64,000 bases of DNA from Amphiscolops sp. MND2022 (GCA_964187785.1 OZ076409.1:2978001-3042000); one strand, 5' to 3'. Shown: positions 1-55,438, numbered from the stretch's first letter. Program-made: numbers and translations. The notes: generated by a model from the letters alone, not told the origin.

Positions 1-1
1 G

Positions 2-13294: not shown

Positions 13295-13372
13295 CTATAA
13301 TGATGGGTTATCATCAAAAACTACGTATAATTCTTTCAACATCAAATGTATTATGATGAGTATTCGGATTCG

Positions 13373-13794
13373 TTTTTAGTCGGCGCTTTTCCATTAAGGG
13401 AAAAATGCCCGACTATAGCAGTGACTGTTTTTTTTCTTCAGACTACAATCCTCACACTGATCGGTCCACTTTTTAGAAACAATCCTGAAACCACCTAAGG
13501 CCAAGTCCGGCCAAGGGAGACTCAGTCCAAAGGGTCCCCCCTTTCATTTTTTCACTTTTTCAAGGAAACCTACAAAACCGCACGTGCCTAAAGGGTCCCC
13601 CCTTTGGATTTTTTTGATATTTTGCAACGGCATATATGTTAAAATCCAGAAGGGTCCCTTTTACATTTTTCGGCACTATGCGACTTTTTTTGAAAGAAGA
13701 ATTTTTTTTCAAAAATTACAATTTTTTCCAAAAAAATGTTTTGCGCTTTTTAAGCCTTAGATATGGGGCCGACTTTAGACGTTCTCGTCTTGTT
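13373..13794 (+). mobile_element. HINE family 1 copy
   Basis: TTTTTAGTCGGCGC...GCCGACTT...CTTGTT; close relative of 9901-10394. Confidence 0.72.
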
Positions 13795-14278
13795 TTTATA
13801 ATTCCGCGTATCTTACGCAACATGTCATTCATGATATTCCATGCAAGGAACCTTATGGTTCCCCTATGATAATTTCATGTCGTTTGCAGCCATGGAATCG
13901 TATGATTCCATGCAATGAAACGCGTGAAACGCAAGGATCTTATGGATCCATGAATGGAATTGCAAAGACTAGGAATCGAATGGAAGCGTCATCAATTCGA
14001 ATCCGGATCGAACCAACACCTTTGATGATAACTTGAAAAAAATTATGATTTCGATCAAAATTGGCAATATTGGCAATATCCAAAATGAAAGTGTCAAATT
14101 TAGCTCACATAGACATTTGTAAATGCAGCAAAATCCAAAGGCAAAGGGCAATCATTTTCAGCCCCTTTTCCACAATTTTTGACTGAATTTGGCCCAGTAT
14201 TCAACCAATTTCATCAATCATTTCTTAACAGAATGTTTATCGATTGATGTAGTTTTTGATGATGATGAAGATGCTAGC

Positions 14279-14422
14279 CTACAACGTGTCCCACTGGAGT
14301 GGTCTCTGAGACCATGAGGTTGGAGGGAGAAGAGGGAAGAAAGGTTGGAAAATTGTCGTTCACATCTGAGATGGTAATTTGCACAGTACACAATGCCAAG
14401 TGTACTCCGTCGTTCACTCGCA
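14279..14422 (-). CDS. Cadherin exon M (RVNDGVHLALCTVQITISDVNDNFPTF...VGHVV)
   Basis: aacag acceptor, gctagc (GC) donor required for frame, 144 bp, phase 1/1. Confidence 0.88.
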
Positions 14423-14984
14423 CTGTTACCATTCGTTATGACCATTCTCATTAGTTCACCCTCTATTCACAAGATACCAGGAAAACAATTATAATTAATT
14501 TTCGGATCTCTTTCACTATGTAACTTTTTTGCTGTAGGGGGACATAGTGAAAGAGATCCTAATTTTCTGGTATTAGCCACTATTTTCCATCAAGAATTTT
14601 CTATGTTCTAACTTTATATTCTGGAATAGAGAATTATTTATGGAGAAAAATCTAGTTTTGAAACGGTGCCCAGAAATAAAAACTACGAAAAATACTCAAT
14701 TCAATTTATGTTTTTTTATTTTAGTTGGAACATTTAAAAAAAACTTTAGGACAGAAAAAAGTGTGTGGAAACTCGCTCTGTTACCGTTCATTATCACCAT
14801 TCTGATTATTTCTCGCTCATTGTCTCATTATGAGATTATAATTGAAGTGATTATAATCTCTCATAATTATAATTTATTTTCTGGTATGAGCTACATTTCC
14901 CTATTAACAGTTTTGCTGTTTTTCAATTTTATACTCTAGAATTGAGTATGGAGTCCATCGACTGAAATTATTTACGGAAAATTC

Positions 14985-15198
14985 TGTTCTATTCTAGGGA
15001 TATAGGTTAAGAGAAAAGGAAATTGTTAAAAGAGATAGATCTATGCTTGTATCACTGTATTGTAACCAAAACAAAAGTATTAATGTATGTCTGGTATGAG
15101 AGTCTATTTAGAGTTTGTTGGTAAACAACTCCTAGCTTCTAGACTGCTGGTATCCGAATTTACAGTAGAGGTCAAGCCGGTATGAACCGAATATAACA
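14985..15198 (-). repeat. 3' LTR of the Mag-like element
   Basis: Direct repeat of 20629-20842; preceded on the minus strand by PPT GAGAGAGGGGGAAA (15199-15212). Confidence 0.95.
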
Positions 15199-15360
15199 TT
15201 TCCCCCTCTCTCTTCTCAGTTCTGGCTGATGGTCCTGGGGGTGTATTCTCTTCGGGAAAGAAATCGGATGGCTTCTGGACCTTCTCGGATAGAGGTGTTC
15301 CTTTGTGCCTGTTCCACAAGTTTCCTGTAATATACATATGATTTATTACACCCGGTTGTT

Positions 15361-18300
15361 CTAACCCCAAAAATTTCCGGTATAAGGTATGCTACCGTAT
15401 CTATTCGGTTTTTTACTATTTCGGTTTGATCGTCTTATTTGGTTTTGGTTTTCTAAGTTCTCACCCGTCGTTTCTCCATCGGTGTAGATTTGTAGAGCGT
15501 CTTCTTCCGGACTAGTTCGGATTGGTATGTAGCTTCCGTTGCATTCAGAAGTGTCATATACTTTTATTGGCGTTCCGGTTTCTTCCGGCATCTCTTCGTC
15601 GTCGTCATCTTCGTCTTCGGTCTCACTTTCCGGTTGTTTCGGATTTTGTACGATTTTTAATTTGCCGTTCAGGATGTCCCGTAGGATCTCGTCCCATCGG
15701 CCATACTTCCCGTTCAAACACCTCAAGCAGTGTCTGTTTTTGGGGTTTATCTCTCCGCTTGTGTTGATTGCCGGTTCTTTTCTGGCCTTTCTTTCGGTCT
15801 GAAACAATGGTCCCGAAATAAATTTCCGGTTTATTATTTTTTCCGGTATCTGTTTTTATGGTACTTTCGGTTCCGCTAACTGCGGTTTGTATTTTATTTT
15901 GGAATCTCCCTTCCAATGATTTTTTGTTGTAATTTTTTTCAACAAAATTGAATGGATATCTAACCGAACTTTTCTTCTTTGGAGATTTTTGGTTTTCGGT
16001 AAATTGTTTTTTCTCCGCTTTTGTCTTCGCCATTACCATATGATTGGTATTCTCTCCATCCGCATCGCGGCCCACATAGATTGGTATTTTGGGTCTGGTT
16101 GGTGCTGAAATAGGCATTTCTGACCAATTTGATAGGTATGTTTTTCCGTCTTTAACAATGTTTGTTAATTCGGTTCTCGGTTTTCTACCGTGGTGTAGTT
16201 CAAACGGTGTTATTTTCAGACCGGTATGTATTGTAAATCGCATAACCCGTAACTCTCTATTTACGCTTTCGGTGATGCCTATTCCGTCTTCCAAGTTTGC
16301 TATTATTCGATTTTTGAGCGTTTGTATTGCTCTTTCCACTGCTCCGTTTCCCGTATGCATTCGGGGTGTACAGTATTCAATTTCGATGTTTCGATTTTTG
16401 CAAAGTTCTCGGTATTCTTTCGATATAAATGCTCCGCCTTTGTCTGATTTTATTTTCTCCGGTATTCCGTATAGATTGAAGTTACTTGTTAAGAAGTTTA
16501 TCACTTCTTTTGTTTCCGCTGATTTACAAATTTTTACGGTCGGCCATTTGCTAAATCTATCAACCGCAATCAGTATCTGTGTTTCGCCGTGTAAATGTTT
16601 ATTATGTAATTTTCCGGTAAAATCAATTTGAATTTCTTGTCCCGGTTTGGATAGTTTTTCTAGTTTTCTGTAATGTTTTTTCGGTAATTGATATTTAAGG
16701 TTTTTACCTGATGCGAGGCATGCTGTACAGTCTTGTACTTTTTTTCGATGTCCTTCTTCATGTCCGGCCACCAGAATAGTTTTGCTTCGGACATCATCTT
16801 CGTTATTCCGGAGTGGCCGAAATGTAGTATCTCCAATAGGCGGCGTCTGAGGTCGATTGGGATTACTATTTGGTCGTCGACAAAGACCAGACCCCATCTA
16901 ATTGACAGCTTGTCAAAAACTGTCCGATATCCGTCGGGAATTGTTTCGCGGTCTTCTCTCCCCATGCTGTTTCTGACTCGGGTCAGTTCCGGATCTATGG
17001 CGGTCTTCGCTATCATCGTTTTTAGGTCCATCATGTCGAACTCGGCTTTATGTGGTCTTCAGTTACTTTTTTGTTTGCGGTGAGTTTGCCGACAATATGG
17101 TTGATTTGAATATATTTTGCTTCTTTCCCGTCTCTGTTATACTTGCTGAGGTCTACGATTGATAGGTTGTCGCCTCGCATTATTACACTGTCCTCTTCGG
17201 TTTCGGCAGTCTCTACTTCTCCTTCTTCCCGCAATTCGTCGATTTCTTCTTCTTCGAGGTTTATCGGATGATATCCACCTCCCAGTCGATTGGCTCGCCG
17301 TTATAGCTCTGCATCGATTTCGGCTATTTCTTCTCTGCTTCTCTTGTTCGGGCGGGTTGGGACAAATACTGTCCGTTGGGTGTGGTGGTCATATCTGCGT
17401 CGTAGGGTTCCGGGTCTTGATAGTGTGCTTCTTTGCTCCACTAGTCTACTTGTCTCGGTGCTGTTGTTTCGTCTCCGTATTATCTCCATAATCTCACGTG
17501 TAGCGCCCCAGTGATGGAAATTGTCTCGGCACATTTCGGTAAATTCCGTATGTAAGGTTAGTTCAATTTTGTTCTGAACAAATTTTAAATTTTTTTCCGG
17601 TAGGCAACTTGAGCTTTGCGTGCTAATATCGGACTGCCCGGATGTATTATTCTCGCTTTGTTGAATTTTGTTCACGCCGTAATCCTTCTCGAATGTTCTA
17701 TTCGAATGTGATTGGTTGTTGATTATCTCATTTTGTTCTTCGGATGTACCATTTTCAGTTTCAACTTTGGTTTTACTGCTTTCTGATTGGTTGGCGAATC
17801 GTTGTCCGTATTTCAAATTCATTTCGGCTTGTTCAGTCAATATGTTAATTACGTATTCCTCATCGTAATTTTCTTCCGGTATAGCTCCCCGTACTGGATT
17901 TCTGCTGAGATAATCGGTAAGTTTCAAATTACTGCCTGCGATATGTTGTATTGATATATCAAAGTGCGTTAGGCGGTCTAACCACCTTGTCAATCTCGCG
18001 CTGTATTGTTTATTACTTCGGTTTCTTTTTATGAGTGGTTCCAATGCTTGGTGGTGGGTGTATAGGTGAACTTTCTTCCCGTATAGTTAAAATCGGAATT
18101 TCTCTAATCCCCGCACTATCGCCAATAATTCCAATTCGCCGATTGAGTATTTCTTTTCGGTTTCATTCAAATATCTGCTTCCGTACGCTATCGGTTCTGT
18201 ATTTCCGACATCTTGTTTTTGCCAGAGTGTTATTCCCAGCCCGGTTGTGCTGGCGTCGGTTGTCACTATATTGTCTTTTTCTTTTGTGTAGTGTGCCAAG

Positions 18301-20576
18301 CATGGGCCTTCGGTAAGCATTTGTTTTATTCGGTGAAAATCCGTTTCTTGTTCCGGTCCCCATTTCCATTGTTCATTCTTTTTGAGTAATTTTCTCAATC
18401 TATCGGTCCGCTCCGACAGTTTTGGTAGATATTTTGCCATGTTTTGTCTTGCTCCGAGAAATGATTTTAGTTCTTTTGTTTTTTCCGGTGGTTTTAATTT
18501 CAATATTGCTTCCACTTTTTCTTCGTTCGGTTTAATTCCGTTTTCATCAATTTCGTGTCCCAGCCATTTTGTGCGGTTCATGAAGAATTCCGATTTCTTT
18601 TTATTTGCTCGGTAGCCGGCTTTTTCTAGTTTATTCAGTATTTCGAATAACTTTTTCTCGTGGTCTTGTTTATTTCCTCGGGTTACCATGATAATATCGT
18701 CTAGCCAAGCCGGTGTACAGTATCCGAGTGTACGGTCGATTTTCTCTTGAAATATTGTGGGTATACCGGCCAGGCCGTAGAAACATTTTTTAAACCGGTA
18801 GTATCCACTGAATTTTCTTCCGGTTAATGCGAATACGCATTGTCTGCTTGTTTCTTCGGATAATTTCATTTGGCCGTACGCATAATCCAAGTCGATCTTT
18901 GACATGAATAGTTGTAGTGTTCGGTCACGTGTTGCTTCTACCGAAATTTGGTTTAACAGTTCCTCCATATTCGGCATGTGCGGTCTCATTTTAATACAGC
19001 TGTCATTTAATTTGCGTGAGTCCAGAGCTATTTTCACCAATTTATCGTTCTTCACGGTTATTACCACCGGTGATACGAAGCAATCTTCTTCTACGTCTTT
19101 TACTTTTTCCAAATGTCCGGATTTTATTAGTTTTTCTAATTCCCGTCCTACATCTTTCTGTAGATGTAGTGGTATCGGTCTAGCTTTTTGTTTTACCGGG
19201 TAGTGTCCAGGTTTTAATTGGATATTTATTTCGGTATCTTTGATTGTGTCGTTGTTCTCAAATAGATCCGGAAATTTGTTAAATATTTTCTCGCGTTCTG
19301 ATTGGTTGTTCTCGGCTAATTGTATTCTTCTGATTGTCAGTTTGAATTTCTTCATCCAGTCCATACCGAGTAATGGTGTTATATCTGTTCTCTCGGTTAT
19401 TAGGATTTCCGTTTTTTGATTAATATTTTCATGTTCGATGTTTACCGGAAGTTTTCCCCGGATTTTTACTTCGTTTTTGTTCACATCTTGGTATCGGTTG
19501 GTTATTTTCTGAATTTGGGTTGACTTTATAATGCTTTCGTCGGGTGGCATAATTGAAATGGGTGATCCGGTGTCAATTATGAGTTCTTTCTTTACCCCGT
19601 TAACTCGTACTACCGCTGTAAAGTGTTTGTTCATTTCGTTTATCTTCTTGATTTCTTTTATGTGGTGTATGCTCTCGTCTGATTCGCTTGTTGATTCGTC
19701 CGGTTCGTTCATTTCTTCTTCGGTTAGTCTTTTCACTGTTCGGTTGTTATTGAATTTCAGTCTGCATGCTTTTGCGTAATGTCCCTTCTTTCCGCATTTG
19801 TTGCAGTTCGCTTCTAGTGCGGGACATTTGTGCATCGGTGTCCAGTTTGGAGCATTGCAAAATCTGCATGTACGGTTTCCGTAGTTTTTATTTTTCGGTC
19901 TGTTACCGAATCGTTCCATTCTTTGTATTGGTTCTTCCTTTATCATGTGTTTTTCTTTTGTTGATATCAAAGCTTCCTGTATTGTGTTCTTTTTATTCTT
20001 TTTCTCGTATGTATTTTGTTTTATCAGTTCGATTATTTTCTTCAGTTCCAGCGTTTTTTCTTTCATTATTTTGTCCCGTAGTTTTTCATCGGTGATTGCG
20101 GTCATGTATTTTGATATCAACAATTCTTCGGCTGATATTGCATTAAAGTTACACTCTTTTTCGATTTCAATTAGTCGTCTCCAGAATTCCTCCGGTGTCT
20201 CATCTTCAGTATGCTTTGCCCAAAAGAAGTCGCCTCGGTTGTGGTAAGTGTTTCTTTTGGGCATGTAGAATTCGGTGAATAACCGGATTAGGTCCTTCAC
20301 TTTTATACTGTCGGGTTCCGTTTTATATTCGGCCCTGGTTATTTGGTATAGTGCTTCCGGTCCCACTCCCCATATGAAATCTTCTTGTACGGCTTGTTCT
20401 TTTCCGTTCCAATTTGCGTCCGTAATATTTTCTCCTTTCAGTAATGGGGTAATATCGATTTTGTGTTCCCGTTTACAAAACTGCCGGAACCTTTAAAGCC
20501 ATTGTCTCGGTGTAATTACTGGGTTTCCGTCTGTGGCTTTTGTTTCTAGGTTTGGGACGGTATTTCTTTCAGCCAT
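15361..20576 (-). pseudogene. Disrupted gag-pol of the Mag-like element
   Basis: ATG at 20576 with a premature TAA near 20494. Two zinc knuckles (CNKCGKKGHYAKAC), protease IIDTGS, RT AWLDD, RNase H TTDAS, integrase IQIDF..IKSDKG..GAVER. Broken by stops and frameshifts into several ORFs. Confidence 0.92.
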
Positions 20577-20615
20577 TGTTTTCCGTTATGAAGGGTTTAC
20601 ACAGTTTAAAAATCG

Positions 20616-20628
20616 GCTGACTGCGCCA
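20616..20628 (-). promoter_or_regulatory. Primer binding site TGGCGCAGTCAGC (tRNA-Ser-like)
   Basis: Abuts the 5' LTR; complementary to a tRNA 3' end ...GCUGACUGCGCCA of the tRNA-Ser type. Confidence 0.75.
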
Positions 20629-20842
20629 TGTTCTATTCTAGGGATATAGGTTAAGAGAAAAGGAAATTGTTAAAAGAGATAGATCTATGCTTGTATCACT
20701 GTATTGTAACCAAAACAAAAGTATAAATGTATGTATGGTATGAGAGTCTATTTAGAGTTTGTTGGTAAACAACTCCTATTTTCTAGACTGCTGGTATCCG
20801 AATTTACGGTAGAGGTCAAGCCGGTATGAATCGAATATAACA
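20629..20842 (-). repeat. 5' LTR of the Mag-like element
   Basis: Direct repeat of 14985-15198; TG...CA. Confidence 0.95.
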
Positions 20843-21205
20843 AATTCTAGTTTTTAAAAAACGGCCCAGAGATAAAAACTATCAAAAATACTCACTTCAA
20901 TTCATTTTTTGGATTTGAGTTTTTACGACCATTTTCTGGGCCATTTTTTAGGGAACTTTAGAACAAAGAAAAAAACCTAATCCTAATTTGAATTGATTCA
21001 ATAAGCATCGTTTCATTCAAAAGTAATTTATATGACAATTTGAGATTCCTTTATTGCTGAGTTAATTTTGTGAATTTTCCGGCTACTTAATTTTTAAAAA
21101 TTGGGCTACTAAATTGTAAAAAAAAGAATTTAGGCGTTTAATTTCCAATTTTAGACTGAAGTATTATTTTTATAAATCTATATGGAGAATGAAAACGGTC
21201 ATGAC

Positions 21206-21356
21206 CGATTATGTCATAGAAGCTTTTCTCTTCAGCGTCCAGAGATGCGGCTACTAAAATGCGGCCTGTTTTCGGCTCTATGACAAACTGTGGGGTCACA
21301 GTGGCCACGAAAGTGTATGTGAGGTCAGCTGACTCATCCAGGTCAGCCGCTTCGAC
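21206..21356 (-). CDS. Cadherin exon L (VEAADLDESADLTY...LDAEEKSFYDII)
   Basis: caaag acceptor, gtcatg donor, 151 bp, ends phase 1; not in the ORF track. Confidence 0.88.
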
Positions 21357-21403
21357 CTTTGATCAGGAATCAGAAATTAAAAATTGACCGACAATCAAAA
21401 ATT

Positions 21404-21856
21404 AAAAAGCCGGGACCGGCCCAAGTCGGCGCCATGTCTAAGGCTCAAAAATAGCAAAAGGACTTCAAAGTGACAAGTATTTTCTTCTACAGTATCCGAA
21501 TAAGGGGAAACTTTTTTGAAGTCTCCGGTAAGTCGCATAGTGCCGAAAAATGTTAAAGGGGACCCTCTGGGATTTTTTGAACATCCATTCTGTTGCAAAA
21601 TAGAAAAAAATGAAGGGGGACACTTTGGAGACATTTAAAAAATTTTCAAAAAAGTCTCACAAAGCCGAAATAACTCTCACTTGGCAGACCTCAAAAAATC
21701 CTAATTAACCTCTATGCCAAGTGTCAGTAGAAGTAGCAGTTTAGTGTGGCAGTTAGTGGAAGCCAGCTTATAAAGTTTATAAAATCTGTCACTTCGTTGG
21801 TCTTGAAAAAGCCAGTGGTAAAGTCTGCGTTTTCGACGAAAAGCGCCGACTAAAAA
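21404..21856 (-). mobile_element. HINE family 1 copy
   Basis: Subterminal inverted repeat AGTCGGCGC/GCGCCGACT; close relative of 59715-60273. Confidence 0.72.
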
Positions 21857-22241
21857 TTGACCAGGAATCAAAAAATAAAAAAATGACCATGAATTTAAAA
21901 AATCAGGTGATATTTTTTGGGGGCTGTGAACGCCAAAGTAACTTCAATTTCATTTGATGCATGAGTTGAGGTATAATACTTGAAAATGTTTTAGGTGTTT
22001 TCAGATTGAGAATAAAAACCACAAAAAGTAATTCTATTTTGTATTTTGGGAGCTGACAGCATTGTGAATATGAAAAAAGACCCAATAAAAAAGATCGGTG
22101 ATTAATTTTTTGTTGTTTTTGTCCATAAGGCACGTCCTGGAAGATAATATATGTTCATTCTCGCCAAATTAAGACCTTTAATTGAATCATTAAATTTTCC
22201 TTCAATAAACGTTTTTCTTCAAAAAAATTTTTAATTCCTGC

Positions 22242-23108
22242 CTGCAAAACCAAAGCCGGGACTCTCAGATTTTCTGGGATCGATACTTCGTACAAATCCT
22301 GCAGAAACTCGGGTCCATTGTTGTTTTGGTCAATCAGGGTTATTTCGACACTCGTAAAGCCTGTCAAAGTCGGTTGCCCTTTGTCGAAAACTTCGATTGT
22401 CAGATTGAAAACCGGGTGTTTCAAAATATCAACCGAGTCTTGGGTTTTGATTGACAAAACGCCAGTTTCAGAATTGATTTCAAAAGCGGCATCTAAATTT
22501 CCTGCCAAAATTTTGAAGCCGATCTGATTGTTTGGACTGGTTGCATCGTTATCGAAACCACCGATACTCCCAATCACTGTTCGTATTGATTGCAACTCCG
22601 GTATCTCAAATCGGTATGTATCGATATCACTTTGTGGGTTGTTATCATTGACGTCAATCACCGATACCTCGATATCAGCGGTTGAGAAAGACGAGCCGTC
22701 AGAAACGATTGCTTGGAAAATAAATTCAGCGTTCGTCTCTCGATCTATCATCCGGGAGGTATAAATGTCACCCGAAGTTTCCTCGACACGAAAGGGCAGA
22801 TCATCCATCTCGGTTAGAAGCGAAAACTTGAGATTAACTGTATCCGCATCGGTGGCGGAAATTTTGCCAACAAATGTGTCCAAATTTACGTTTTCCTGGA
22901 TCCGGAACGAATATTTGGACTTGCCGAATTCAGGCGCTAAGTCGTTCACGTTCAATACGATGACTTCTAGAATTGTCTCGCTCGAGAGGTAAGGGGGCTC
23001 CATGTCGGAAGCAATGGCTACGAACTCCAGACGACCTCCTGAACTTTCGAAGTCAAGAATTCCCACAAGCGTGACCTCGGCGGTTGTAGGGTCAATTGCA
23101 ATCGGGAG
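22242..23108 (-). CDS. Cadherin exon K (LPIAIDPTTAEV...PENLRVPALVLQ)
   Basis: cttacag acceptor; about 2.5 cadherin repeats; donor inferred as CAG|gcagga (GC). Confidence 0.92.
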
Positions 23109-24479
23109 CTGTAAGAGGAAACATGATAGCGCTAATCGTTGATTAACGAGAACGAGAACAAACATTTCATGTGTCATAATAATCGTTTTGAAATCACAAA
23201 CGTACTATAGTCAATAATTTTAAATTGCTACTGCTTTCAGGAGTTTTTTAAAGCTCTTTCTGATTTTTTTGATTGAAAATCTTAAAATTGATAAAACTGG
23301 GAACCTTTGAAATTAATCCTGGAATCCAATTTCATACGAGAGCCATTTTACACATTGCAGTGTTTCAGTCACCGAAAAAAAAACAAAAAAAAACAAAGAA
23401 AGAATATTCTTTAGATCTTATGCTAAAATAACTCTTGGTAGAATATATTTTTTTCACTACGAAAGGTTGAACAAAAATTGACGAAAACCCACTACTGTAT
23501 AATACAGTTCCAAAAATGAAGGTTCAGCCAGACGAAAAACTGAAATTACCCAGAATTTTTTTTACTGAAACCCAAAATGATCAAGAAAACTTTGTTATAG
23601 TTTATTGTAACATATGCGACTAGAAACTAGAGCACTTTGACCTCTGAAACTAATGAGTTATTGCAACTTGGGACCATGTGTCTTAGTTCTTCCCAGGTAC
23701 ACCTTGATTCGCATTTCAGTCAACACGAAAACACGTTTTATTTCTCAAATAAATTTTGCACGAATAAAAGAAATTTATATGGTTACAAATACTGGAGGAA
23801 TTGTCTCTACAGCTGTTTTGACATTTCCAGCAAAAAAAATTACCTTGATTTTTTTTGATATTATTGTTAAAAGTAGCAAACTTTCTTGCCTAGAGCAAGC
23901 CAAAATCGTATAGAAAGGCCACTATTTTAACGCAAACTTTCCCCGCCGTAAAATAACTTGAGCCACTTTTAACTGTGAGTCAATGTGAAAGAAGAAATGA
24001 TGTCAAAATTTTTATTGCACCGGAATTGCAACGCAAGGTATGTCGATATAATAGTATTTGAACCTTTTTTCCGTTTCCCCCATTGAATGTACGTCAACAC
24101 TTTTTGGACCATTCCATGTTAACGCTACAATTGTTTTTGCCATAAAGACAACAGTTGATTTACTCAAACCCAAATCCGTTGCAATGTTTTCAAGATTATC
24201 CGCTGATAGAGTTTTTGACATGGTTTATCATCTCTTTTCAAACGTGTGCATTTTCAAACGTTCAACATACAAAGAATCTGTATGGGACCTGGAAATGAAC
24301 AATGAAATCGAATCATGCAATGTTGTGAGATGGTCCAAAACGTTTTGACTCGCTTTTCGCTGACAGGTCCAAAGCGAACACATCTTTTAGAGTGGTCCAA
24401 AGCGTTTTGACTCAAAAAGAATCATGGTTCGAATTTCTACTCAATGTTATCATGCAAGTGAAGTGATAAAACTACTCAC

Positions 24480-24710: not shown

Positions 24711-24713
24711 CTG

Positions 24714-25104: not shown

Positions 25105-25280
25105 CTGAAAAATGGGAAAATTGAAAAATAGTAACCAACCGACATCAGATGGTTGTCAAAATCACTCATCTCCATCTAACGAACGGTTCGTATGACGTAG
25201 TAAAGTAAATTGCACGATAGTTTAGATAACGATGCTCATTTTCTTACTGTTCTTGTATATTTAGTCCTCTGTAAATTAGT

Positions 25281-25698
25281 TGTGATGCCATGATGCATGT
25301 CCTCAAAGATTTTATAAATCTGAAATACTCTGAACTCTTAACAAAAGAAATTAGTAAATCTAATTGAATCTAGAAACCAATTATTCTAGAAGAAACTTCT
25401 TTTAATATATCCTGTACCAAGCTTCCCCAATTCATCCTGTTGATGTCACATTGTAATTGATGAAACCTACCCTAGTTAATAGAATATATCTACTCGGAGA
25501 AATTGAGAATTCTTCCTAGCAATCAGTCTTCTTCCAGCACTTCAAGAACTGAGATCTCAGAAATAGATTGTACTCTGAACTAGCTAGCTACCAAGTATCA
25601 GATAAAAGATAAGACGACTCTGCTGTTAAAATCTTAGACTTCTTATGTCAGTTCTAACTCGTATAAAAGAAACAACTACTAAAACTTTTAACAGCTCA
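25281..25698 (+). repeat. 5' LTR of the giant element
   Basis: TGTGA...GCTCA; identical by eye to 42886-43303. Confidence 0.96.
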
Positions 25699-25700
25699 AT

Positions 25701-25712
25701 TGGTGCGACCAA
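25701..25712 (+). promoter_or_regulatory. Putative primer binding site (TGGTGCGACC...), tRNA not identified
   Basis: TGG 2 nt downstream of the 5' LTR. Confidence 0.6.
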
Positions 25713-26419
25713 GAAAATTCTTCTTTCTCTCCCATTTATTTCACATATCTACAATTGTTGTACACCTTTTCTCAACTTTCTCATCCGATATCTCTTTGTT
25801 CGACACACAGTCTCTCCACCTCTCAATATTGCATACCGTTATTAACTTCAACGTTGCAACCAATTTCTACTTGAAATTGATCCGTGTTGCTATGGTTCTG
25901 ACTGCGTTCATCAACGTAATTCCTGTCAGTCATACTTCTTGGTTCTGACTACGTTTCTTCACGTAATTCCTGTCCGTTAAATTTTTCGTTCCAACCACCT
26001 CTGAGTGAATTCGTGTTGGCTTTCTTCCTCTCTCTTTCTTTCGTTCCAACCGCAGACGTGCGATACGTGTTGGCCCTTCTACAGTGCTATCCAGCGATTC
26101 CTGCTAGTAGAAATCTTTTTGGTTCTAGCCGCTTGGATCAACTTTAAAGTTGGCACACCTATAAAACACATATTTTTACATAACATAATTATAATACTTT
26201 TCTTATTCTCTCTTCTATAATACCAACCCCATACAAAACTCCTTTGAAACTCTCTTACGGATCCAAATATATAACAATTAAAATATATAATACATAATAA
26301 TCTAAATATATAACATATATCACATCTTTCTTTATATAACTTTCATTTTTTCATACAACTATATACAACAAATTCCTGTACAACCTTTTTGACAAACTTT
26401 AAATAAAACTTTATTGTAT

Positions 26420-26542
26420 ATGCCGCCTTCAGTAGACACTATAGTTAAACTTATTGTCTGCTTTTGGTTTTTTGTTGCTATCATTGCCGGTCTTGCACTT
26501 TTTCTAGACAAATTTTTAATTTCATTCATACCAAAATTTTAA
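26420..26542 (+). CDS. 40-aa hydrophobic upstream ORF (MPPSVDTIVKLIVCFWFFVAIIAGLALFLDKFLISFIPKF)
   Basis: ATG to TAA read by hand; one TM-like stretch; coding status unproven. Confidence 0.35.
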   Translation: MPPSVDTIVKLIVCFWFFVAIIAGLALFLDKFLISFIPKF

Positions 26543-26561
26543 AGTACAATCTTTTTCTTCT

Positions 26562-26801
26562 ATGTTAACAAGTATAGTACTACCTCTTTTTGGACTACTT
26601 AGTATATACCACACTTTCAAAATACTTATCCAATATATACAAAACCCACTTCTTCTTTTCATAAGTATTGTACTTACTATTTTTCTACAAGTTATTTTTA
26701 TAGATCAAATTTTACCATATAATTCACAGTTCAATACAAAATATCTTCTTTTCCGATACATCTATCCTTTATGGCAATCCTATTGTACTAATCAAACTTA
26801 A
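26562..26801 (+). CDS. 79-aa hydrophobic upstream ORF
   Basis: ATG ORF with two hydrophobic stretches, ending 9 nt before the gag ATG. Confidence 0.35.
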   Translation: MLTSIVLPLFGLLSIYHTFKILIQYIQNPLLLFISIVLTIFLQVIFIDQILPYNSQFNTKYLLFRYIYPLWQSYCTNQT

Positions 26802-26810
26802 TATCATATA

Positions 26811-29800
26811 ATGCTCCCCACTCCATTTACACTCTCTACTGATAAAAGACAAAATCGATCTCTTATACAATATGTAACACCTTTTCTACAAAATATTATC
26901 TTTCAGTACACTAACCCACTTCCATTTGAAACAGAACCCCATATATTACACACTATTCCATTAATACGAGAACATTGTGATTCCTACTTATATTATATCC
27001 AATATAAAACACTTGACATAACACCATCACAAACCCCTTTCCAAGTTATTTTTAATCCTGTTAAAGGAATAAACTCTGGAACATTTTATAGAACTATACA
27101 TCCACAGAATATTACACTTTCTATACAAGATGTTTTTCGCACATACATGCAAAAACTCATTGAATTCAATGAACACCAAGACATACCACCTTATCGTCCT
27201 TCTCATTTACAAGAACTCAAACACTTATCTGAATATTTCGAGGTCCCTGATCTTGACACAAAAGTTCAAAGACATGGTAACCCTCATTATTGGCTACAAC
27301 GAGATATATTACAAATAAAGAATTTCGAGTTTAAATTCTTTACAAAAATTACCCTTACAGATGACACTATACCTCAAGTCAAAATTTTTACACATTTCTT
27401 ATTAAAATTCTTTAGATTTAACTACCAATTACTTTGGGAACAAAAAGACCAAAACGCTTATACTAACTTCCCAAAAGCATTAACAGATATAGAACTCTTA
27501 CCATACATCATAGACAATAAAAACAAACACTCACATTACATTGATCTTACTTCATTAAATGTTACACATTTTGAACAAATAAACCTAGATCACAACTTTG
27601 TACTTGAACATTCTGAAACGTCAGATAGTAGACCTTATATTACATCTGATACTTTATATCACACAACTCTTCCAACACAAACATTTAATGTTGAACCTCC
27701 ATATATCAGACAACAATCAGAACAATCAGAACAAGAATCTATAACACAAGAAACACTTGTTCATCTTTTTCAAAATCCTGATTCTCCTCAAGAACAATCA
27801 TCACAGCCACCACAATCACAAACCTCTGATACGCGACACCCAAATCCGTCTGAAACACATACACTTCCCAATACATCAGAATTTTCTGACGAAACAGTAC
27901 AAAATCCACAAAGTTTTACAATAACTGAAGACTCCAATCTTATAACAATTCCTACCCATAATATCACCCAAAGGACTACAAATCAGAATCAAGACAACCC
28001 TTCAAATATCATTACAGACAATACTTCTGTTTTATCTCCATATAATACTAACATTACACAACCCTCTCAGACACAAATAATACCTCCTCGAAATTATGAT
28101 CCACCTCCTATTCCATCTCAATTCTCAGCTCAAATAAATACTCATGTCTCTCCTCAACCAAGCTCATCAAATACACACTCTATTACACAGAACAATAATA
28201 CAGTACATTTCCAAACACCAACTCCACCTTCATCTTCTGAAATACAAACTTCAACTTATACTCCAGCTCAAACTAACCCAGTACAAACTACACAGCCTAC
28301 CTTAAATATTAACACAATTCATTCTAACCCGCTCTCTAACTATACTACAGCCAGACATCTGTCTCGGCCTCCATTACAACCTATATTAACTGACCCATTA
28401 TCATACAATCTCACCAGTACCAATCCAAGTCATACCCAACAATGTCAAATAAATTATAACACACACAACCAATTAAACACTCTTTCTTCCCAGCATACAT
28501 CTAATACAATCCCTCCTACATTACAAACCTCTCACTTTCAAATATCAAATCCTCCTTCAACAACAATTAGAACTAACCCTCACTTTCATAATACTTCAAC
28601 TATCCCTTCAACTAATATTTCAAATCATCCTACATACAATACAACACCTCCATCTACTATGTCTCATAACACTATGTCACATCCAACATATATTAACTCT
28701 TCTACTTCTATATCAGAACCCATTAAACCTTTTGATGGACTCGATCACAACTATACACCTGAAGAATATTTACAACATATTGAGGCACGTGTTACATTCT
28801 CCTTAGGTTTACAACCTACATCAGAACATGAATATAAATTTTGGCACGCTCGCGGCATGGCTTTCATACAATGCTCTTTAACAGGTACAGCACTAAGCTG
28901 GTACATCCGTTTAAACGACACTTATAAACATGATTGGCACGCTTTCGTACAAGCTTTCAAAAAACAATTTTCCTCACAAAAGAACGCTTATTACGCTCAA
29001 GTTGAAGCCCTTAATTTAACAAAGAAAGATAATGAAACAGTACGTCATTTTGCACTCAAAGTTCAACAACTGGTTGAAAAAGGCTGGTGTAATGAGAATG
29101 CATCTACTATAAACCTTAAATGCAATGAAATCTTTACAAAAGGACTTCCAAAAACCCTTAAAGACTTTGCAAATAAAAGACAAGTAAAACACACCTCCAC
29201 TGTCTTAGAACCTTCAATTCCTTTCCATACCTTGGTAAAACTTGTTGACGCTGAGGATATTGCAAACGACAAAATTAGAACACATGATCTTGCACTTGAA
29301 ATCAATAATATTACAAAACAATTGAACACTCAAACCCTAGATCACCCATCTCAAGAACAACTTATGTATACACAACCCAAAGACCCAAATAACAAAAATA
29401 AACCTGCATATAAAAAATACTGCTCATACTGTCATAGAACAAATCACTCCATTTCTGCTTGTTTCAAAAAACAACGAGATGACGAAGATAAACGAGAAGC
29501 ATATGCTCGATCAAAATCTCCACAAAAATCATTCGTTCAGTACTTTCGTTCTCCTTCAAATGACAAAACAAAACACTATGATAATCGATATCGAAGTCGA
29601 AGTACTTCACGAGATAACTCTTATAACCAAAAATATTCACAAGATCGATACCGTTCTACATCTCGAGATAGAGACCGATTTCGTTATGATAAAAGTACTA
29701 CTCCTCCACATTACTCCAGATCCAGATATGACACATATAAACGTGATTCTCGATCTTACCGTTCTCCTTACAGATCTTCTTATAGATCTCCCTATAGACA

Positions 29801-35008: not shown

Positions 35009-35109
35009 TCTAGTCATTCTATCTGTTGGCTTACTCAAACCTAGTCACTCCGGTTGAATAAATGTTGAATAAATGAAATAAAACTCATAACAAGTTATCT
35101 TACAGATAA

Positions 35110-39015: not shown

Positions 39016-39261
39016 ACTCTCTCTCAGTTCTTCTGAAACTCTCTTCCAGAACACTCGCCTGCTATTTCTTCACAATTGCTACTCCTCCAACACTTGAAAC
39101 TCTTGCAGAAATTCATCTTCCTCAGTCCAATAATACTTCTCTCATAATAACCATCTTCAAAAACTCTTCAACTAAAGTTGACAAATCCACTCGTTAGTGT
39201 AATTTATAGTACTTTAACTTTAAAGTGCTAAGGCCTCTTGGAATAGATAACACTGTGACTG

Positions 39262-40608: not shown

Positions 40609-41018
40609 ACTCCTCTACAGGTAATATAAAGTTTTAAATTTTCTTCTCTGGTACATTCTATGGTACATCTGTGGCACATTCTACAAGGTATTTTCATTTT
40701 TATTTAACAAAAATCTTTACTTTTGAATGAAATCTTAGGACTGTTTTTTAAGTACACTAATTTTTCCTACAGTACATGTCAAAAACTAACTATTTTTTTA
40801 CTCAAAACACTACAATACAAGACATACAAGACAATATAAAATAACACTACATATGGTACATTATAGCACCCATTTTTGTTGTACATCTTTGACTTGATAT
40901 TGTCATTCTTCTTACACTTCCTTTGTTTTAGAAACATCCATTCTTCCTTCTCCTTCATCCAAATTCTTTCAGAACATCCCAACTTCTCTTTCTTCGTATT
41001 CTTCAAACTCTCGTCATA

Positions 41019-41471
41019 ATGGCTCCAAATGCTGAAACAAACGACATTCTAACAATGACTTCAGAATTTTCGAAAGTGCATAGTCTTAAAGCCGCCATAT
41101 TTCATACCATGGCCTTCAAACTCTCGCTTGAGATTCACAAAAACAAAATTACGCCAAAATGTCTCATCGCTTTTTTAAAAGTACTCTACAATGTCACGCA
41201 AATAAAGAAAAAGAAAATCACTTTCGAGCAATACTCGCGAATCCATCTTCAAGGACCTAAAATTGCCATTTGTGAAACGGCATCTAATGTTGTTTTCGTC
41301 CTCAATTCGTCCTTTACTTCAAAGGATCAGTACTTTCGTGCTGCTATCCAAGAAGCTACAGATGCTTTTAATAATATGTTGCAAGATTTCGGGTATACTC
41401 AACAACTAGAACTTTATGACCCGATCCAACACCAACCTCATCCTCCATCGCAAAACTCTCTCTTTCAATAA
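41019..41471 (+). CDS. Accessory ORF (150 aa), unknown function
   Basis: ATG ORF; ITFEQYSRIH matches INFDQYLHIH in ORF 62643..63296. Confidence 0.65.
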   Translation: MAPNAETNDILTMTSEFSKVHSLKAAIFHTMAFKLSLEIHKNKITPKCLIAFLKVLYNVTQIKKKKITFEQYSRIHLQGPKIAICETASNVVFVLNSSFTSKDQYFRAAIQEATDAFNNMLQDFGYTQQLELYDPIQHQPHPPSQNSLFQ

Positions 41472-41700
41472 TCTCTAACACAAACTTCTACTTACTTCTA
41501 TTTCACTCTTTGACTACATTTCGTCTCCAAATTCTTCATCTTCTTTCGATGATGCTTCGAAATGTGGTTGATGATTACTTCAAAGAACTCCTACACATGC
41601 TGAAACTCTTCACTTCACCCACCCACGATGGTCAACAACATCCATCTACACTTTGGGTTCATCGACGTTGCCAAAAATTGTCCTCGTCATCAGTCTCCAC

Positions 41701-41836
41701 ACTTCAAATGCTGACTTCTTGACTGGTCTTCATCCTCCAATGCTGACTTCTTGACTGGTCTTCACACCTCAATTGCTGACTTTGTGAACTGGTCTTCTTC
41801 ACACCTCAACTGCTGACTTCGTGAACTGGTCTTCAT
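41701..41836 (+). repeat. Four tandem 32-39 bp repeats (TGCTGACTT...ACTGGTCTTC) in the 3' UTR of the giant element
   Basis: Directly visible. Confidence 0.85.
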
Positions 41837-42885
41837 ACTTCAATGGCCAATACAAATTTCAAACTGAACTGTATAATCACTTATAATCAATATAACCTGT
41901 AACCCATTTTAATCAAATCATAATATAGACTAGTGCTATATACTCGTATCTAAATTTTAATGCTATATAATCTTATCTAATCTAGTGCTATACACTCCTA
42001 TCTAATCTTTCGCGCTATATAATCTTATTTAATCTTAATCTTATCTAACCATTGTATAACTACCCCCCATTAACCATAATCCTTCCCAAATTTTACCCAT
42101 AATTATTCTTGTAACCACAATATTATCTACTTCCATTGTATTGTGTATAGAACTTTAACATTATCTTACATAATTATCCACTTCAAAATATATTTTAATC
42201 CCCGTCTTTTTACAGAACACAAGTCCTACTTACAGCACAAGAAATTTTCTAAGATTTTTGGACAAAAATTTTTCTTTTACAAAACATGTTCTACAACTTT
42301 CCTTTAACCCTCAAAAGCATTCCCAAAAAATTTTCCAAAATTTTCTTTCGAACTCTTAAAAATTGTCACTTGTAAAATATGTCACTTCTAGTTTTCAAAT
42401 GTTTGAAACTTGAAATAGCCAAAGTTTTTTTTCAACTCTTGCTTCTGCTCTACTCTTCACTTTTGTTGAAAATGAACTCTCACTTCAACCTTGACTTTTC
42501 AAAACTTCTTCACTTTTGGTTCACATACCCGCCAATGTTGGTTCACAATTCATTGACAACTTCACGCTTTAATTCCTCAACTTGAAAAGTTTTCAATGCT
42601 GACTAACTCATGTTGATGAAACAAACTTTTTCAACAAGCCGATGGAAACTGAAAGAACTTGAACCTGTTTGAACCTTTTTGCACCAATTGAATCGTCTAT
42701 GACGTAAGAAGTCAAATCGTCTTAGGTTGTTCTCACTCCTTAAGTATGGTACTCTACAAAACAAAACTCATGCAACTGTAATACAACATATATGAAACAA
42801 ACCCATGCACATAACAAAAACTTCTAGAACTCCTCAAACTCAAAAGTGCATATATGTAATTTTTATTTTTAAATTCCCGGTTGAT

Positions 42886-43303
42886 TGTGATGCCATGATG
42901 CATGTCCTCAAAGATTTTATAAATCTGAAATACTCTGAACTCTTAACAAAAGAAATTAGTAAATCTAATTGAATCTAGAAACCAATTATTCTAGAAGAAA
43001 CTTCTTTTAATATATCCTGTACCAAGCTTCCCCAATTCATCCTGTTGATGTCACATTGTAATTGATGAAACCTACCCTAGTTAATAGAATATATCTACTC
43101 GGAGAAATTGAGAATTCTTCCTAGCAATCAGTCTTCTTCCAGCACTTCAAGAACTGAGATCTCAGAAATAGATTGTACTCTGAACTAGCTAGCTACCAAG
43201 TATCAGATAAAAGATAAGACGACTCTGCTGTTAAAATCTTAGACTTCTTATGTCAGTTCTAACTCGTATAAAAGAAACAACTACTAAAACTTTTAACAGC
43301 TCA
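42886..43303 (+). repeat. 3' LTR of the giant element
   Basis: TGTGA...GCTCA; followed by the TSD TAGT. Confidence 0.96.
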
Positions 43304-47662: not shown

Positions 47663-47773
47663 CTCATTAACAACCCAACAATTTACTTCTTGTAGAAAAA
47701 CTCTCGAATAGGGAATAGAGAATAGTTCTTTCTAAGTTGCCCAGTAGAGAGAGGACATGGTGCATTGACTAAC

Positions 47774-47958
47774 TTGGCGTCCATTTTGAACCAGGTGACG
47801 TCACTGTGGTTGAGGGCGTAGAGCACCCTCTGGAAGGCGAGAGAGCTGTCCCCGTCCAGGGCAGTCACTTGCAACACGACAGTTCCCAGGGGCACCGACT
47901 CCACCACAGAGGCCGAGTAGGCGGCTCGTGTGAATCCAGGGGCCACGTCATTCACGTC
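47774..47958 (-). CDS. Cadherin exon H (DVNDVAPGF...WFKMDA)
   Basis: catttag acceptor, gttagt donor, 185 bp, ends phase 2. Confidence 0.92.
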
Positions 47959-51678: not shown

Positions 51679-51961
51679 CCATCTTACCAAAGTTCTGGAA
51701 TGAAACGGCCTTGTTTTGTTTTCGTATTCGTTTTTCGACGTGTAAATCATAAATTTACATTCTTTGACTAATTATTCTCTGTTTGAAAGTGATGGGATAT
51801 AAAAGTTTCAATGTTTCATTCCAGAGTAAACATGATGATGGAAATACGCTCAAGACAGTGTACCTTACAAACTACAAACTGATACTGGATAACTAGAATG
51901 TGGATAGGAGTTTTTTGAGATGTTTGGTAATTTGATTTGTTCATCAGAATTCTCATTCAAC

Positions 51962-52039
51962 CTGAATGCTCAGTCGAACTGTGGTTTCGCCATTTGAGAT
52001 GACCTCATTGGAATAAGGTGATACATTTTCAGCTGTGGC
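51962..52039 (-). CDS. Cadherin exon G (ATAENVSPYSNEVISNGETTVRLSIQ)
   Basis: tttacag acceptor, weak gttgaa donor, 78 bp; bridges ITFK to DVND in frame. Confidence 0.78.
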
Positions 52040-53024
52040 CTGTAAACACGAAACGGTCTTTTGTGCGCGTGATAAAATCTACTTTCATGGGAGAACAACA
52101 CAAAAACATCTTTTCCCCTTTATTACAAGTAGAGTGAAACATTAATTCAATTATTTAGGTTCAGTGGATGATTTTCATTTTCAATTTTGTCCTAAGGAAT
52201 TGGCAAATTGAATTGATTTGATTAGCATTGGGAATTTTTTCGTTTTTCGAAACTTGATCGTCATTCAATTATCTCCATCAACATGCAGAACGATGTTACT
52301 TCTGTCCTTGATTCATTTAATCCCGCGTTAGTGTTCCCGTGAGCTCATATCTTTGGTCATAGCGATCATCATATGCTCTTGGGCCGGTAAAGTCGGGCAT
52401 CAGGTGTACAGAAGCGGCTGGATCTTAGAAGTTTTCAGTGGACACGAGTTCCGATTTTTTAAAGATTTTCGATTTTCTTTTTCTCACTTACGTTGTTTGG
52501 GATTGTTTTCGTATACTACTAACTCGGGAGAACAAAACATTAGACCAGTATAACTCAATTGGACTCATGAACTGTCTTCTTTCAAACCGGAAATTTGCAA
52601 TTTGAACAAAAATTCCTGATTCCTCACTTGAAAAAAATCCTTACATGAGTTTTTGTCTTGACCTACTCAAATGTTTGCTCGCCTCAAGCTACGATGGTAG
52701 TAGACGAAGGTTGAGTTTCAAGAAATAAAGCTGCCTTTATAAATTCGGTCCCGTGGCTTTCAGATATCGACTTAAGTTTTTCTAACGTGAACTTTCTCTT
52801 TCAAGAAACTAGGACTATGAAAAACAATGAAATATATGAAAATATGACTTTAGGAAAGCAGACAAACATTATGCTTGATTGTTTTGAGGTTTCGATTAGG
52901 CAGATTTTTACCTCTGAAAGTCTCTTTTGTTGAATTTATATTCTGTAAGTTGTTCGTTGTTTTGTTTGAAACATTCAATAAATTAATTAAGTCATTACAA
53001 ATAACATTATCAAAAGTAACTAAC

Positions 53025-53189
53025 TTTGAATGTGATTGTTTCAATTTGTTCTCTGTCGAAGGGTTCTACGATATCAACTTCTCCGCTCTGAGAGTTCATC
53101 GAAAGATGATTGGTCAGAAAATTGTTTTCGTCATCCAATAGCAGCGCGTAAACAATAGCAGCGTTGTCTCCTTCGTCTGAATCGAGGGC
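53025..53189 (-). CDS. Cadherin exon F (ALDSDEGDNAAIVY...FDREQIETITFK)
   Basis: tttttcag acceptor, gttagt donor, 165 bp. Confidence 0.92.
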
Positions 53190-53620
53190 CTGAAAAACGA
53201 ACCGAAAATAAAAATGGTGCGAAAGACAATTTTGGATTCTATCTAAGACAATATTGAGGAGATTGGGATTCCCTTTTGGATGTCTCTGCAAACTCTTGGT
53301 TTTTTATTCGAGACCTGAAGCTTCGTTTATTTCTCGCAGTTCATAGTGTGCGAAGCCATGGTACCCTTGCCATGATCCATAGCAAGTTACTAGCAAGCCT
53401 TGCCGAGATCATTGAAAGATCTTGACAAGGATTGCATGGTCATGCGAGATCGTGATGCCATGTAGCCATGATGAAACCATGATCTTGGCAAGGAATCTAT
53501 GGTACCATTCGCAAAACTTTGGGGTAATTCAGAGCTCTTATTTAGTTAACTGAAAATTTTGTTCGCTAGTTTTTGAAAAAAGTTTCTGTCTTGTGAACTG
53601 TTTGAAGTTTATAACTTTAC

Positions 53621-53776
53621 CGTCAATTTGAAAGCGTTCTGAGCCACGTAGTTCTCTGGAAAACTGAAGGAATATTCGGCGCGGCTGAAAACTGGAGGGT
53701 TGTCGTTCAAATCGGTGACTGCTATCTCCACTTCCACGATAGAAACAGTCGGAGTTGTCGGGGATTGATCCCGCGC
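53621..53776 (-). CDS. Cadherin exon E (ARDQSPTT...DLNDNPPVF...NAFKLT)
   Basis: tgaag acceptor, gtaaag donor, 156 bp, phase 0/0. Confidence 0.92.
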
Positions 53777-53781
53777 CTTCA

Positions 53782-55438
53782 GAACGGAATTATTTGACGA
53801 AAGAAAACACCACTTACTACGAAATCCAATTACTACTTTTCCATGTAATCAAAAGAATATTATTATTATTATCATTATATGAATATTATGATATTTTATT
53901 GAAATTGAATTTTCTATTGATCTAGAAAAATGGCAATAAGGTTCAGAACCGGGATAATTTCCACCCTGGAAGAAATCTGCAATATCAACTATTTTTTCTC
54001 CCGAGCGTAGCTTATGCCAACGAAAAGAATGAAATTTTGCTCAAAAAGTTCAAAAAGATGAGAAATTTACATTTTAAGGCTCGTTTTTTTTGGAAAGCCT
54101 CAGATTTCTTCCATTTAAAAAAGTGTAAAGGAGCTAATTGTTTTGTTGTCAAACTCTGGTGGTTTTCAGTCCCATGATTTCTGTACAAAACGTGCAAAAA
54201 AATTCCGAAAGTTTGTGCAAAAATTACTATTCTTTCAAACTTTTGGTATGCTTTCATTATTCGAATAAGATCAACAATCGTCATATTCACGTATACAACC
54301 AACTTTGTTTCTGCTGCGAGAAAGTAACATTCTTTTGTGAAATTAATAGCTCACAAGTTTTTGAAAAAAAATCCAGCTGAGAGATTAAATTTTCTTTCCG
54401 AAATGGAAAAGGGCTTGAAAGAAAAATCGATTCATTTTCAATCGGCATTTTCATTCAGTGATATGTAACAGCAAGCTCTGGTACAGCAATATCAACCGAT
54501 TTTGCAACTTTGACATGTTCAGAAATTTTGTCAAAAATTCTAATCCGATGTGTGACGTGGCACTGAGCATGTGATTGCTCTTTTCGCTGTTTCCACGAAA
54601 TTGGCAGGTACTTCGACAACAAAGAGCAAGAACGAGCAAAAATACGGGCGCGCCGCCATGACAGAAGCCAGAGACGGCAAGAACGACCGAAAATAGACTC
54701 TTTTTGAGGTGCTAACACCGGTTTTATCGATTTTCAGCATTATGCTACCCTATGTAGCGGAAACCGTAAAAATGAGTCTTTTCGCCTAAAGATCCTTGTT
54801 TGGTGCTTGGAGCCCCTGCGCCCCAGCTTTTTAGCTGTGTGGTTTGCCATATTCGTGCCTGTTTTCATGTATTTTCAGTGATTTTGGCTGTATTCAGTAG
54901 CGCTAGCGCTAGTTTAGATCTTATTCCCCAATTTTAGATCTTATTCACATGTCACCCTGGAACTGGAAATTTACCTAATTCTTGGCATTGTTTTTATATG
55001 CTAGTTAAGCGGTGGTCTTTAGAGAGTCAGAAAGATGCCCGTTACTATTAGCAATCAAAGACTAGGACCGGTTGGACAGTATTCGTCGAAGCACCCGCGG
55101 CCCCGGGACGTATTTCACCCCTGGAGGCAAAATGGATCTGTGGCGATGGGCGCCTGTCCCGAGCGATTCACCCATTCCTGCAGGTTCCTCCACCTCTGTT
55201 AACGTGTTAAGCGACCGATAACTGCTTGCCGTTACAATATTTATGCGTTTCGAATATTCATGTTGAATCTTCTGATAATTTTTAATGAACATTTTCGGCC
55301 TAATTAGGACTTCGCGTTTCTAAATGGAACAAAAAATGCCGTTATTTAGCATTACAATTACAAATCGTGAAATTAGGTGCAATTCGGAAAATAAAAATAT
55401 AAAAATTAAATTTTGGAAAAATTTCGATAATTCCGTTC
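53782..55438. mobile_element. TIR-bounded insertion that makes up a cadherin intron (introner-like)
   Basis: 12-bp perfect TIR GAACGGAATTAT; 5-bp direct repeat CTTCA at 53777-53781 and 55439-55443. Confidence 0.7.
54464..55236 (+). mobile_element. Solo LTR of a more distant element-1 relative
   Basis: TGTAACAGCAAGC...GCTTGCCGTTACA termini. Shares TGACGTGGCACT, AGCGCTAGCGCT, AAGATGCCCGTTACT and AGACTAGGACC in the same order as the element-1 LTR. Flanks ATA/ATA. Confidence 0.8.

Follow-up and report, generated by a model that had tools for sequence, protein, structure and literature searches.

How are introns recognised when their splice signals are poor, and can pairing between their two ends make up for the loss? 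This question is raised by a cadherin gene of the acoel Amphiscolops sp. MND2022, which occupies the minus strand of ~8-61 kb in a stretch of 64,000 nucleotides (nt), OZ076409.1:2978001-3042000 of assembly GCA_964187785.1 (here the window, C1:2978001-3042000 in a 1.07 Gb assembly). Four introns of this gene, labelled odd1 to odd4, have weak or non-canonical borders, and it is confirmed that each carries near both ends an inverted repeat of 12-18 nt of its own, as had been proposed in a preliminary description of the window. The best reading, which we favour only tentatively, is that these are old introns with eroded signals whose splicing may be helped by a terminal stem.

Cadherin matches (tblastn, 40/120 fetched homologues) fall on the minus strand only, in ten segments spanning 8.0-61.1 kb, and a 109-column hidden Markov model (HMM), built from fetched homologues and used to locate split domains, finds these on the minus strand only as well. 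Pfam cadherin domains are present in frames 22155-23204 and 8635-9804 (2/11 long frames scanned). The nearest relative of the protein on record has 32% identity, none being close. Among named hits, the mitochondrial COX1 of the assembly comes nearest to sequences of acoels (Symsagittifera 75%, Baltalimania 73%), which places the organism in this group. The modelled exons are open, retain intact DxNDN-type motifs and score as cadherin, within a window that is AT-rich (31-42% G+C) from ~8 kb on. Eleven of the 15 cadherin introns listed in the preliminary description were re-derived from their junctions, the remaining four lying at 51.9-47.9 kb. Six ordinary introns were recovered with GTAAAG, GTTAGT, GTGAGA, GTTAGT, GTAAAG and GTGAGT donors and T-rich acceptors, together with the ambiguous GTTGAA donor at 51961. 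The outer limits also proved exact, 55438 being the first base of the 'GA' intron odd1 and 13295 the last base of odd3, which ends in ATTATAG.

Intron borders and splice-site strength

Introns were modelled in three cadherin genes, namely the present one with 40 kb of flanking sequence and two more at C3:21.52-21.59 Mb and C1:14.07-14.10 Mb. For adjacent HMM hits, every in-frame join within a band was scored regardless of its dinucleotides, giving 16,473 de-duplicated peptides. There were 47 adjacent hit pairs, of which 6 were dropped for want of an admissible join, and 38 of the 41 that were scored had a GT-AG join within 6 bits of the optimum; the other three are odd2 and two poorly supported GC-AG calls (A0 and B20). 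Together with odd1, odd3, odd4 and one hand-drawn control, the 41 scored introns make up a set of 45.

The exact join of odd1 can be drawn with seven equivalent border pairs (GA..AG, GG..AA, AG..GA, AA..TG, GA..CT, TG..TC and AA..GG), all of which give the same mRNA and none of which is GT-AG, GC-AG or AT-AC. The 'GA' donor assigned to this intron in the preliminary description is therefore only one of seven. The sole GT-AG pair takes GTGAAG at 55444 as its donor (-1.5 bits) and keeps the AG; at 81.0 bits it falls short of the exact join (90.1 bits), and it removes two residues that belong to the conserved Y-x-L-x-V-x-A-x-D strand. The GT of this alternative donor lies at conserved column 81, phase 0, an agreement that was dropped as evidence because GT is part of the valine codon expected at that column. 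The 'GA' border is only a candidate, as a prior against GA-AG could outweigh 9 bits.

For odd2, a GC..AG join scores 116.0 bits against 104.8 for the best GT-AG (a difference of 11.2 bits), and odd3 has no in-frame GT-AG pair within 24 nt; in each of the two, GC-AG is one of 4 equivalent border pairs. They are well-supported candidates for GC-AG introns. The borders of odd4 are GT-AG. The exact joins restore uninterrupted cadherin domains, and in four control introns the GT-AG join lies 0-5.5 bits off the optimum. U12-type introns have highly conserved 5' splice-site and branch-site boxes, and none of the four starts (GAACGG, GCAGGA, GCTAGC and GTCATG) resembles the U12-type consensus.

Splice-site strength was scored with a matrix trained on the 38 GT-AG introns, which is slightly flattering to them. 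Donor scores are 1.5, 2.8, 4.1 and 2.7 bits for odd1 to odd4, compared with 3.2-11.9 bits for the 38, and acceptor scores are 3.2, 5.3, 2.7 and -4.7 bits, compared with 5.3-18.3 bits. All four acceptors and three of the four donors are hence at or under the minimum of the GT-AG introns, and the remaining donor, that of odd3, falls among their lowest five values. The acceptors had been described as devoid of a polypyrimidine tract; this fails for odd2, in which a T-rich stretch lies 10-30 nt upstream of the AG and belongs to the repeat arm.

End complementarity and predicted folding

When the first and last 40 nt of the 45 introns are compared by local alignment, the four odd introns reach complementarity scores of 30, 25, 24 and 21, whereas the other 41 do not exceed 15. 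Scores of at least 21, 24, 25 and 30 occur among 5000 random pairs at frequencies of 0.003, 0.0006, 0.0004 and 0.0002, and an exact complement of at least 11 nt occurs in 4/4000 random 40-nt intronic pairs, one of at least 12 nt in 0/4000. The four arm sequences are mutually unrelated and non-repetitive. Their placement within 15 nt of the splice sites, as first described, does not hold for odd3, whose arms begin at +16 and -16. Since the same four introns have the highest repeat scores and the weakest signals, poor sites and end pairing go together in this sample. The association holds among 45 introns of three cadherin genes, against random pairs; of a genome-wide class, no member was found among the 29 introns of the two other genes.

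Each intron was folded whole with 20 nt of exon on either side, which was done for odd1, odd2 and odd3, odd4 being too long. All arm pairs appear in the minimum free energy (MFE) structures, with a mean pair probability of 0.90 in odd2 and 0.99 in both odd3 and odd1, and in these three the repeats are predicted to form the closing helix of the whole intron. For comparison, 24 GT-AG controls of 150-1400 nt were folded; in 22 of them, fewer than 2 pairs are expected to join the first 40 nt to the last 40.

A second version of exon H and the frame running into the start of odd2 (window 22220-23180), 99% identical, is found in a public assembly as P0338. It differs by two Pro-to-Thr changes within exon H and by an Asn-to-Ser change at the codon over intron bases +13..+15 of odd2, which would correspond to an A-to-G change at +14 in the 5' arm with a G.U pair kept. 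The P0338 frame stops one codon past this arm, where the window has GAA. P0338 and P0391 are the sole near-identical proteins, and both are unspliced calls of genomic open reading frames (ORFs).

Proposed structure-aided splicing and its alternatives

According to the reading that we favour, the four would be genuine, long-standing introns of an acoel cadherin gene still under selection, whose splice signals may have eroded to a GC or other non-GT start and to an AG without a preceding pyrimidine tract. Each would be closed by its own helix of 12-18 bp between the first ~30 and the last ~30 nt. In the pre-mRNA, this helix would loop out 0.9-6.8 kb and bring the exon ends close together, between a few and ~30 nt apart, whereby the ordinary U2-type spliceosome could pair and use sites that it would otherwise recognise poorly. 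Once such a helix is present, the splice sites would be free to decay. The formation of the helix in vivo, its help to splicing and the exact borders, taken to be those that the protein model prefers, are what we infer.

Known systems offer a precedent for part of this mechanism. The closest functional parallel is provided by the (AC)n/(GT)n introns of teleosts, whose ends are bridged by complementary repeats and in which U2AF2 is reported not to be needed (PMC4691745); the same paper cites yeast introns with pairing between the 5' splice site and the branchpoint. Independence from U2AF2 would fit those odd introns whose acceptors lack a pyrimidine tract. Unlike the teleost class, the odd introns have unique, locus-specific arms of 12-18 nt and no simple dinucleotide repeats. 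Weak or non-GT donors and a 5' arm that runs over the splice site set them apart as well, and the host is an acoel and not a vertebrate. A literature search that did not cover most subscription journals returned, by title or abstract start, no paper on non-canonical or structured introns in acoels.

Several observations weigh against structure-aided splicing. For odd1, a reading as GTGAAG..CTGAAG is available at a cost of two residues (9.1 bits). The class was seen in 4/16 introns examined in this gene compared with 0/29 in the two other cadherin genes (Fisher P ~0.012, by our own arithmetic), with three of its members next to one another, a distribution that a general mode of splicing fails to explain. 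The structure-guided class proposed in the preliminary description is backed in this gene by weak sites, end complementarity and predicted closing helices, but not by the two other genes. Furthermore, ~8 end pairs are predicted in 2/24 GT-AG controls, and the 5' splice site itself, from +1 or +2 onward, falls within the 5' arm in odd1, odd2 and odd4, an arrangement that, given how U1 binds, would be expected to hinder recognition rather than to help it. Finally, the sole arm polymorphism, the A-to-G change that would keep a G.U pair, is a single event.

Birth by insertion is the alternative that survives best, although we regard it as unlikely. Each intron would be DNA that had inserted into or next to an exon, whether a non-autonomous DNA transposon (the Fritillaria case) or filler captured in double-strand-break repair, and the repeats would be relics of its ends with no need of a present function. 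It would account for 5' arms that begin at the first or second intron base in three of the four introns, for the 5-6 nt direct repeat (TGAAG/G) that adjoins the 12-nt arms of odd1 on both sides, and for exact joins that give back an uninterrupted cadherin register. The preliminary description had likewise suggested seeding by DNA-transposon families, which is not borne out. No family was found: within the 1.07 Gb genome, odd1 is single-copy over its first 202 and last 686 nt, odd2 over its first 381 nt and odd3 over its first ~310 nt. The 15-mer of odd3 has 17 genome hits against 28 for its reversed control, and the 12-mer of odd1 has 176 hits where its control has 35, a 5-fold excess; the terminal 24-mer of odd1 has 5 near-matches against 1 for its control. 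Four unlike arm sequences would moreover require four lost families, and the 3' arms end 5-15 nt before the intron end. As for TGAAG(G), AGG and TAG, their reading as target-site duplications was given up in view of the junction repeats in the 45 introns, where direct repeats of at least 6 nt occur in 2/45 and the longest, of 8 nt, belongs to a GT-AG intron; the repeat of odd1 is 6 nt long, and the AGG and TAG that make up the repeats of odd2 and odd3 are accounted for by the splice consensus itself (AG/G).

Intron positions divide between the two explanations. The recurrent position at column 81, phase 0, is missed by odd1 by two codons (column 83, phase 0) and by odd4 by 1 nt (column 81, phase 1), which would favour insertion. 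In contrast, the position of odd2 (HMM column 28, phase 0) is precisely the one most often conserved, being shared by five GT-AG introns of two genes, and odd3 shares column 26, phase 1, with the GT-AG intron B43. Every odd intron also holds a sharp-edged, nested multi-copy repeat that is separate from its arms; the copies of the one in odd1 are so alike that it must have been amplified very recently. As the nested repeats of odd2 and odd3 are old and the modelled exons are still open, the gene appears to have kept working with the odd introns in place.

Other structured or repeat-ended introns help to place the four. In the larvacean Fritillaria borealis, which has transposon-derived introners, non-canonical introns make up 95% of the total; they fall into AG/AC and AG/AT classes, show a YAY triplet and have ends that belong to multi-copy elements (PMC13326754; bioRxiv 10.1101/2025.08.15.670264). 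The likeness consists in an animal genome with non-GT/AG introns ending in inverted repeats, but the odd class is rare, three of its four members have canonical-type GC/GT-AG borders, and their ends are single-copy. The internally symmetrical (stw)introns of Hypoxylaceae fungi, which are spliceosomal, share the terminal inverted repeats and the lack of flanking target duplications, but they have repeats of 45-55 nt, are ~90-200 nt long, form a proliferating family and keep canonical sites (PMC8469720).

The odd introns could instead be ordinary weak-site introns with a helix that regulates or inhibits splicing: by masking the 5' splice site and the pyrimidine region, it would make the splicing of exons I and J, or of the whole transcript, slow, alternative or cell-specific. 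The helix might also have no function. This alternative is rather less likely. Regulated exons commonly have weak sites, the arms run over the regions where U1 and U2AF would bind (+1..+18 and -30..-6), and three of the four introns flank the consecutive small exons I and J. However, skipping I, J or both (151 and 144 nt) breaks the frame, a gene that stayed open would pay dearly for an inhibitory helix on sites already very weak, and the random-pair nulls exclude four independent chance repeats.

A bolder version of the structural reading would be helix-defined intron removal in an acoel, independent of GT or a pyrimidine tract, in which locus-specific terminal stems mark the excision points. 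It would constitute a metazoan counterpart of the nonconventional and intermediate introns of euglenids, with ordinary introns in conserved places as its source instead of transposons, and we consider it improbable. These euglenid introns are the next closest parallel (PMC4770533, PMC12501133): both groups have variable or non-canonical borders, a helix joining the ends (here a predicted one) and intermediate forms with GT/GC-AG borders, and direct repeats stand at the junctions of a recently gained euglenid intron too. The euglenid core is nonetheless a 3-bp CAG/CTG pairing fixed at +4..+6 and -8..-6, which can be drawn for odd2 and is lacking in odd1, odd3 and odd4; the odd arms are 12-18 nt long and lie at varying distances, and euglenids are protists. 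With its borders shifted by -2 (21357-22243), which leaves the mRNA unchanged, odd2 reads N3-CAG...CTG-N5/A, the euglenid signature. This is probably due to chance, since only one of the four fits.

It is more doubtful still that the locus is a decaying gene copy or a faulty model, in which case the 'introns' would be inserted or wrongly joined sequence with no precise removal. The reading frame did not close between 51.9 and 47.9 kb, a search of 5.8 billion proteins for a longer, spliced product with exon I found none, and the two Pro-to-Thr changes of the second haplotype fall in exon H, which has 289 residues. On the other hand, the modelled exons are open with intact DxNDN-type motifs and remain stop-free although the nested repeats are old, the domains are uninterrupted after exact joins, and a +1 frameshift suspected after exon X1 receives no support from the HMM (35.8 bits against 37.1).

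Least probable of all is non-spliceosomal removal. One form would be helix-defined, euglenid-like RNA excision, to which the seven odd1 borders and the CAG and CTG of shifted odd2 (cf. PMC4770533) would lend themselves; its signature, however, is present in one intron of four, and AG is combined with GT or GC in three. The other would be precise somatic DNA elimination, on which the present findings have no bearing. We know of no pathway of helix-defined excision in animals.

Features of the locus and their meaning

The exons that flank the odd introns, the introns with their arms and the nested repeats are collected below.

Exons, odd introns, repeat arms and nested repeats of the cadherin gene (positions in the window; + and - offsets counted from the intron borders)
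Feature	Position	Strand	Basis and remarks
Exon A (part within its own open frame)	55439..55825	-	Upstream of odd1; HMM and junction reading
Exon B	53621..53776	-	Downstream of odd1; HMM and junction reading
Exon H, 289 codons	22242..23108	-	Upstream of odd2; HMM and junction reading
Exon I	21206..21356	-	Between odd2 and odd4; HMM and junction reading
Exon J	14279..14422	-	Between odd4 and odd3; HMM and junction reading
Exon K	13140..13294	-	Downstream of odd3; HMM and junction reading
odd1 intron, 1662 nt, GAACGG...CTGAAG	53777..55438	-	Junction reading; exact join 90.1 bits
odd1 5' arm GAACGGAATTAT, +1..+12	55427..55438	-	Terminal inverted repeat
odd1 3' arm, -17..-6	53782..53793	-	12/12 complement of 5' arm; pair probability 0.99 in whole-intron fold
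odd2 intron, 885 nt, GCAGGA...TCAAAG, GC..AG	21357..22241	-	HMM column 28, phase 0
odd2 5' arm, +2..+16	22226..22240	-	14/15; 15/15 pairs in MFE, including one G.U
odd2 3' arm, -29..-15	21371..21385	-	Terminal inverted repeat and fold
odd3 intron, 984 nt, GCTAGC...TTATAG, GC..AG	13295..14278	-	Junction reading
odd3 5' arm, +16..+30	14249..14263	-	Terminal inverted repeat
odd3 3' arm, -30..-16	13310..13324	-	15/15 complement; pair probability 0.99
odd4 intron, 6783 nt, GTCATG...TAACAG	14423..21205	-	Junction reading
odd4 5' arm, +1..+18	21188..21205	-	15/18 complement
odd4 3' arm, -30..-13	14435..14452	-	Pairs with odd4 5' arm, 15/18
Young 774-nt repeat in odd1 (intron positions 203-976)	54463..55236	-	At least 39 other copies, 98-99% identity, many chromosomes
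Old repeat in odd2 (intron positions 384-838)	21404..21858	-	77-86% identity to other copies
Repeat in odd3 (intron positions 483-906)	13373..13796	-	85-90% identity to other copies
Long terminal repeat (LTR) retroelement in odd4	14985..20842	-	Protease, reverse transcriptase (RT), RNase H and integrase ORFs; 214-nt LTR cores 97% alike

The nested repeats of odd2 and odd3 both end in inverted termini of the AGTCGGCGC / GCGCCGACT type, on account of which they look like related families resembling miniature inverted-repeat transposable elements (MITEs). The one in odd2 is flanked by an imperfect direct repeat of ~22 nt. A further palindromic repeat of ~140 nt in odd3 (window 13798-13970, intron positions ~311-472) is also MITE-like and has matches of 70-84% identity at many loci, in both orientations.

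Two retrovirus-like elements sit within introns of the cadherin gene. A large one, on the plus strand at window 25240-43080, lies inside the 22.7-kb E-F intron and has gag, RT/RNase H and integrase frames, as well as a frame (36263-38677) with a fusion glycoprotein domain of the Monjiviricetes type. Two short frames, one at 25.24-25.47 kb and the other at 42.76-43.08 kb, are identical and resemble its LTRs, and the region displays a strong C-over-G skew of -0.4 to -0.5. At the other end of the window, positions 1-7000 form a G+C-rich block (47-57%, against 31-42% elsewhere) with two long open frames on the plus strand, one of 609 aa that is open at the window start and one of ~1430 aa; neither has a Pfam match, and an Atlas search likewise gave no lead.

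The four introns possibly represent a new variant of structured introns. Two explanations are on offer for non-canonical introns, namely that structure lets splice sites decay and that transposon ends become splice sites, and stems that are unique to each intron, with at least one intron at an ancestral position, would separate the former from the latter. GT-AG-bound gene predictors would break or shorten such acoel genes. Acoels are early-branching bilaterians, and if RNA confirms the junctions, Amphiscolops would be an animal outside the tunicates in which the recognition of splice sites leans on the pairing of intron ends.

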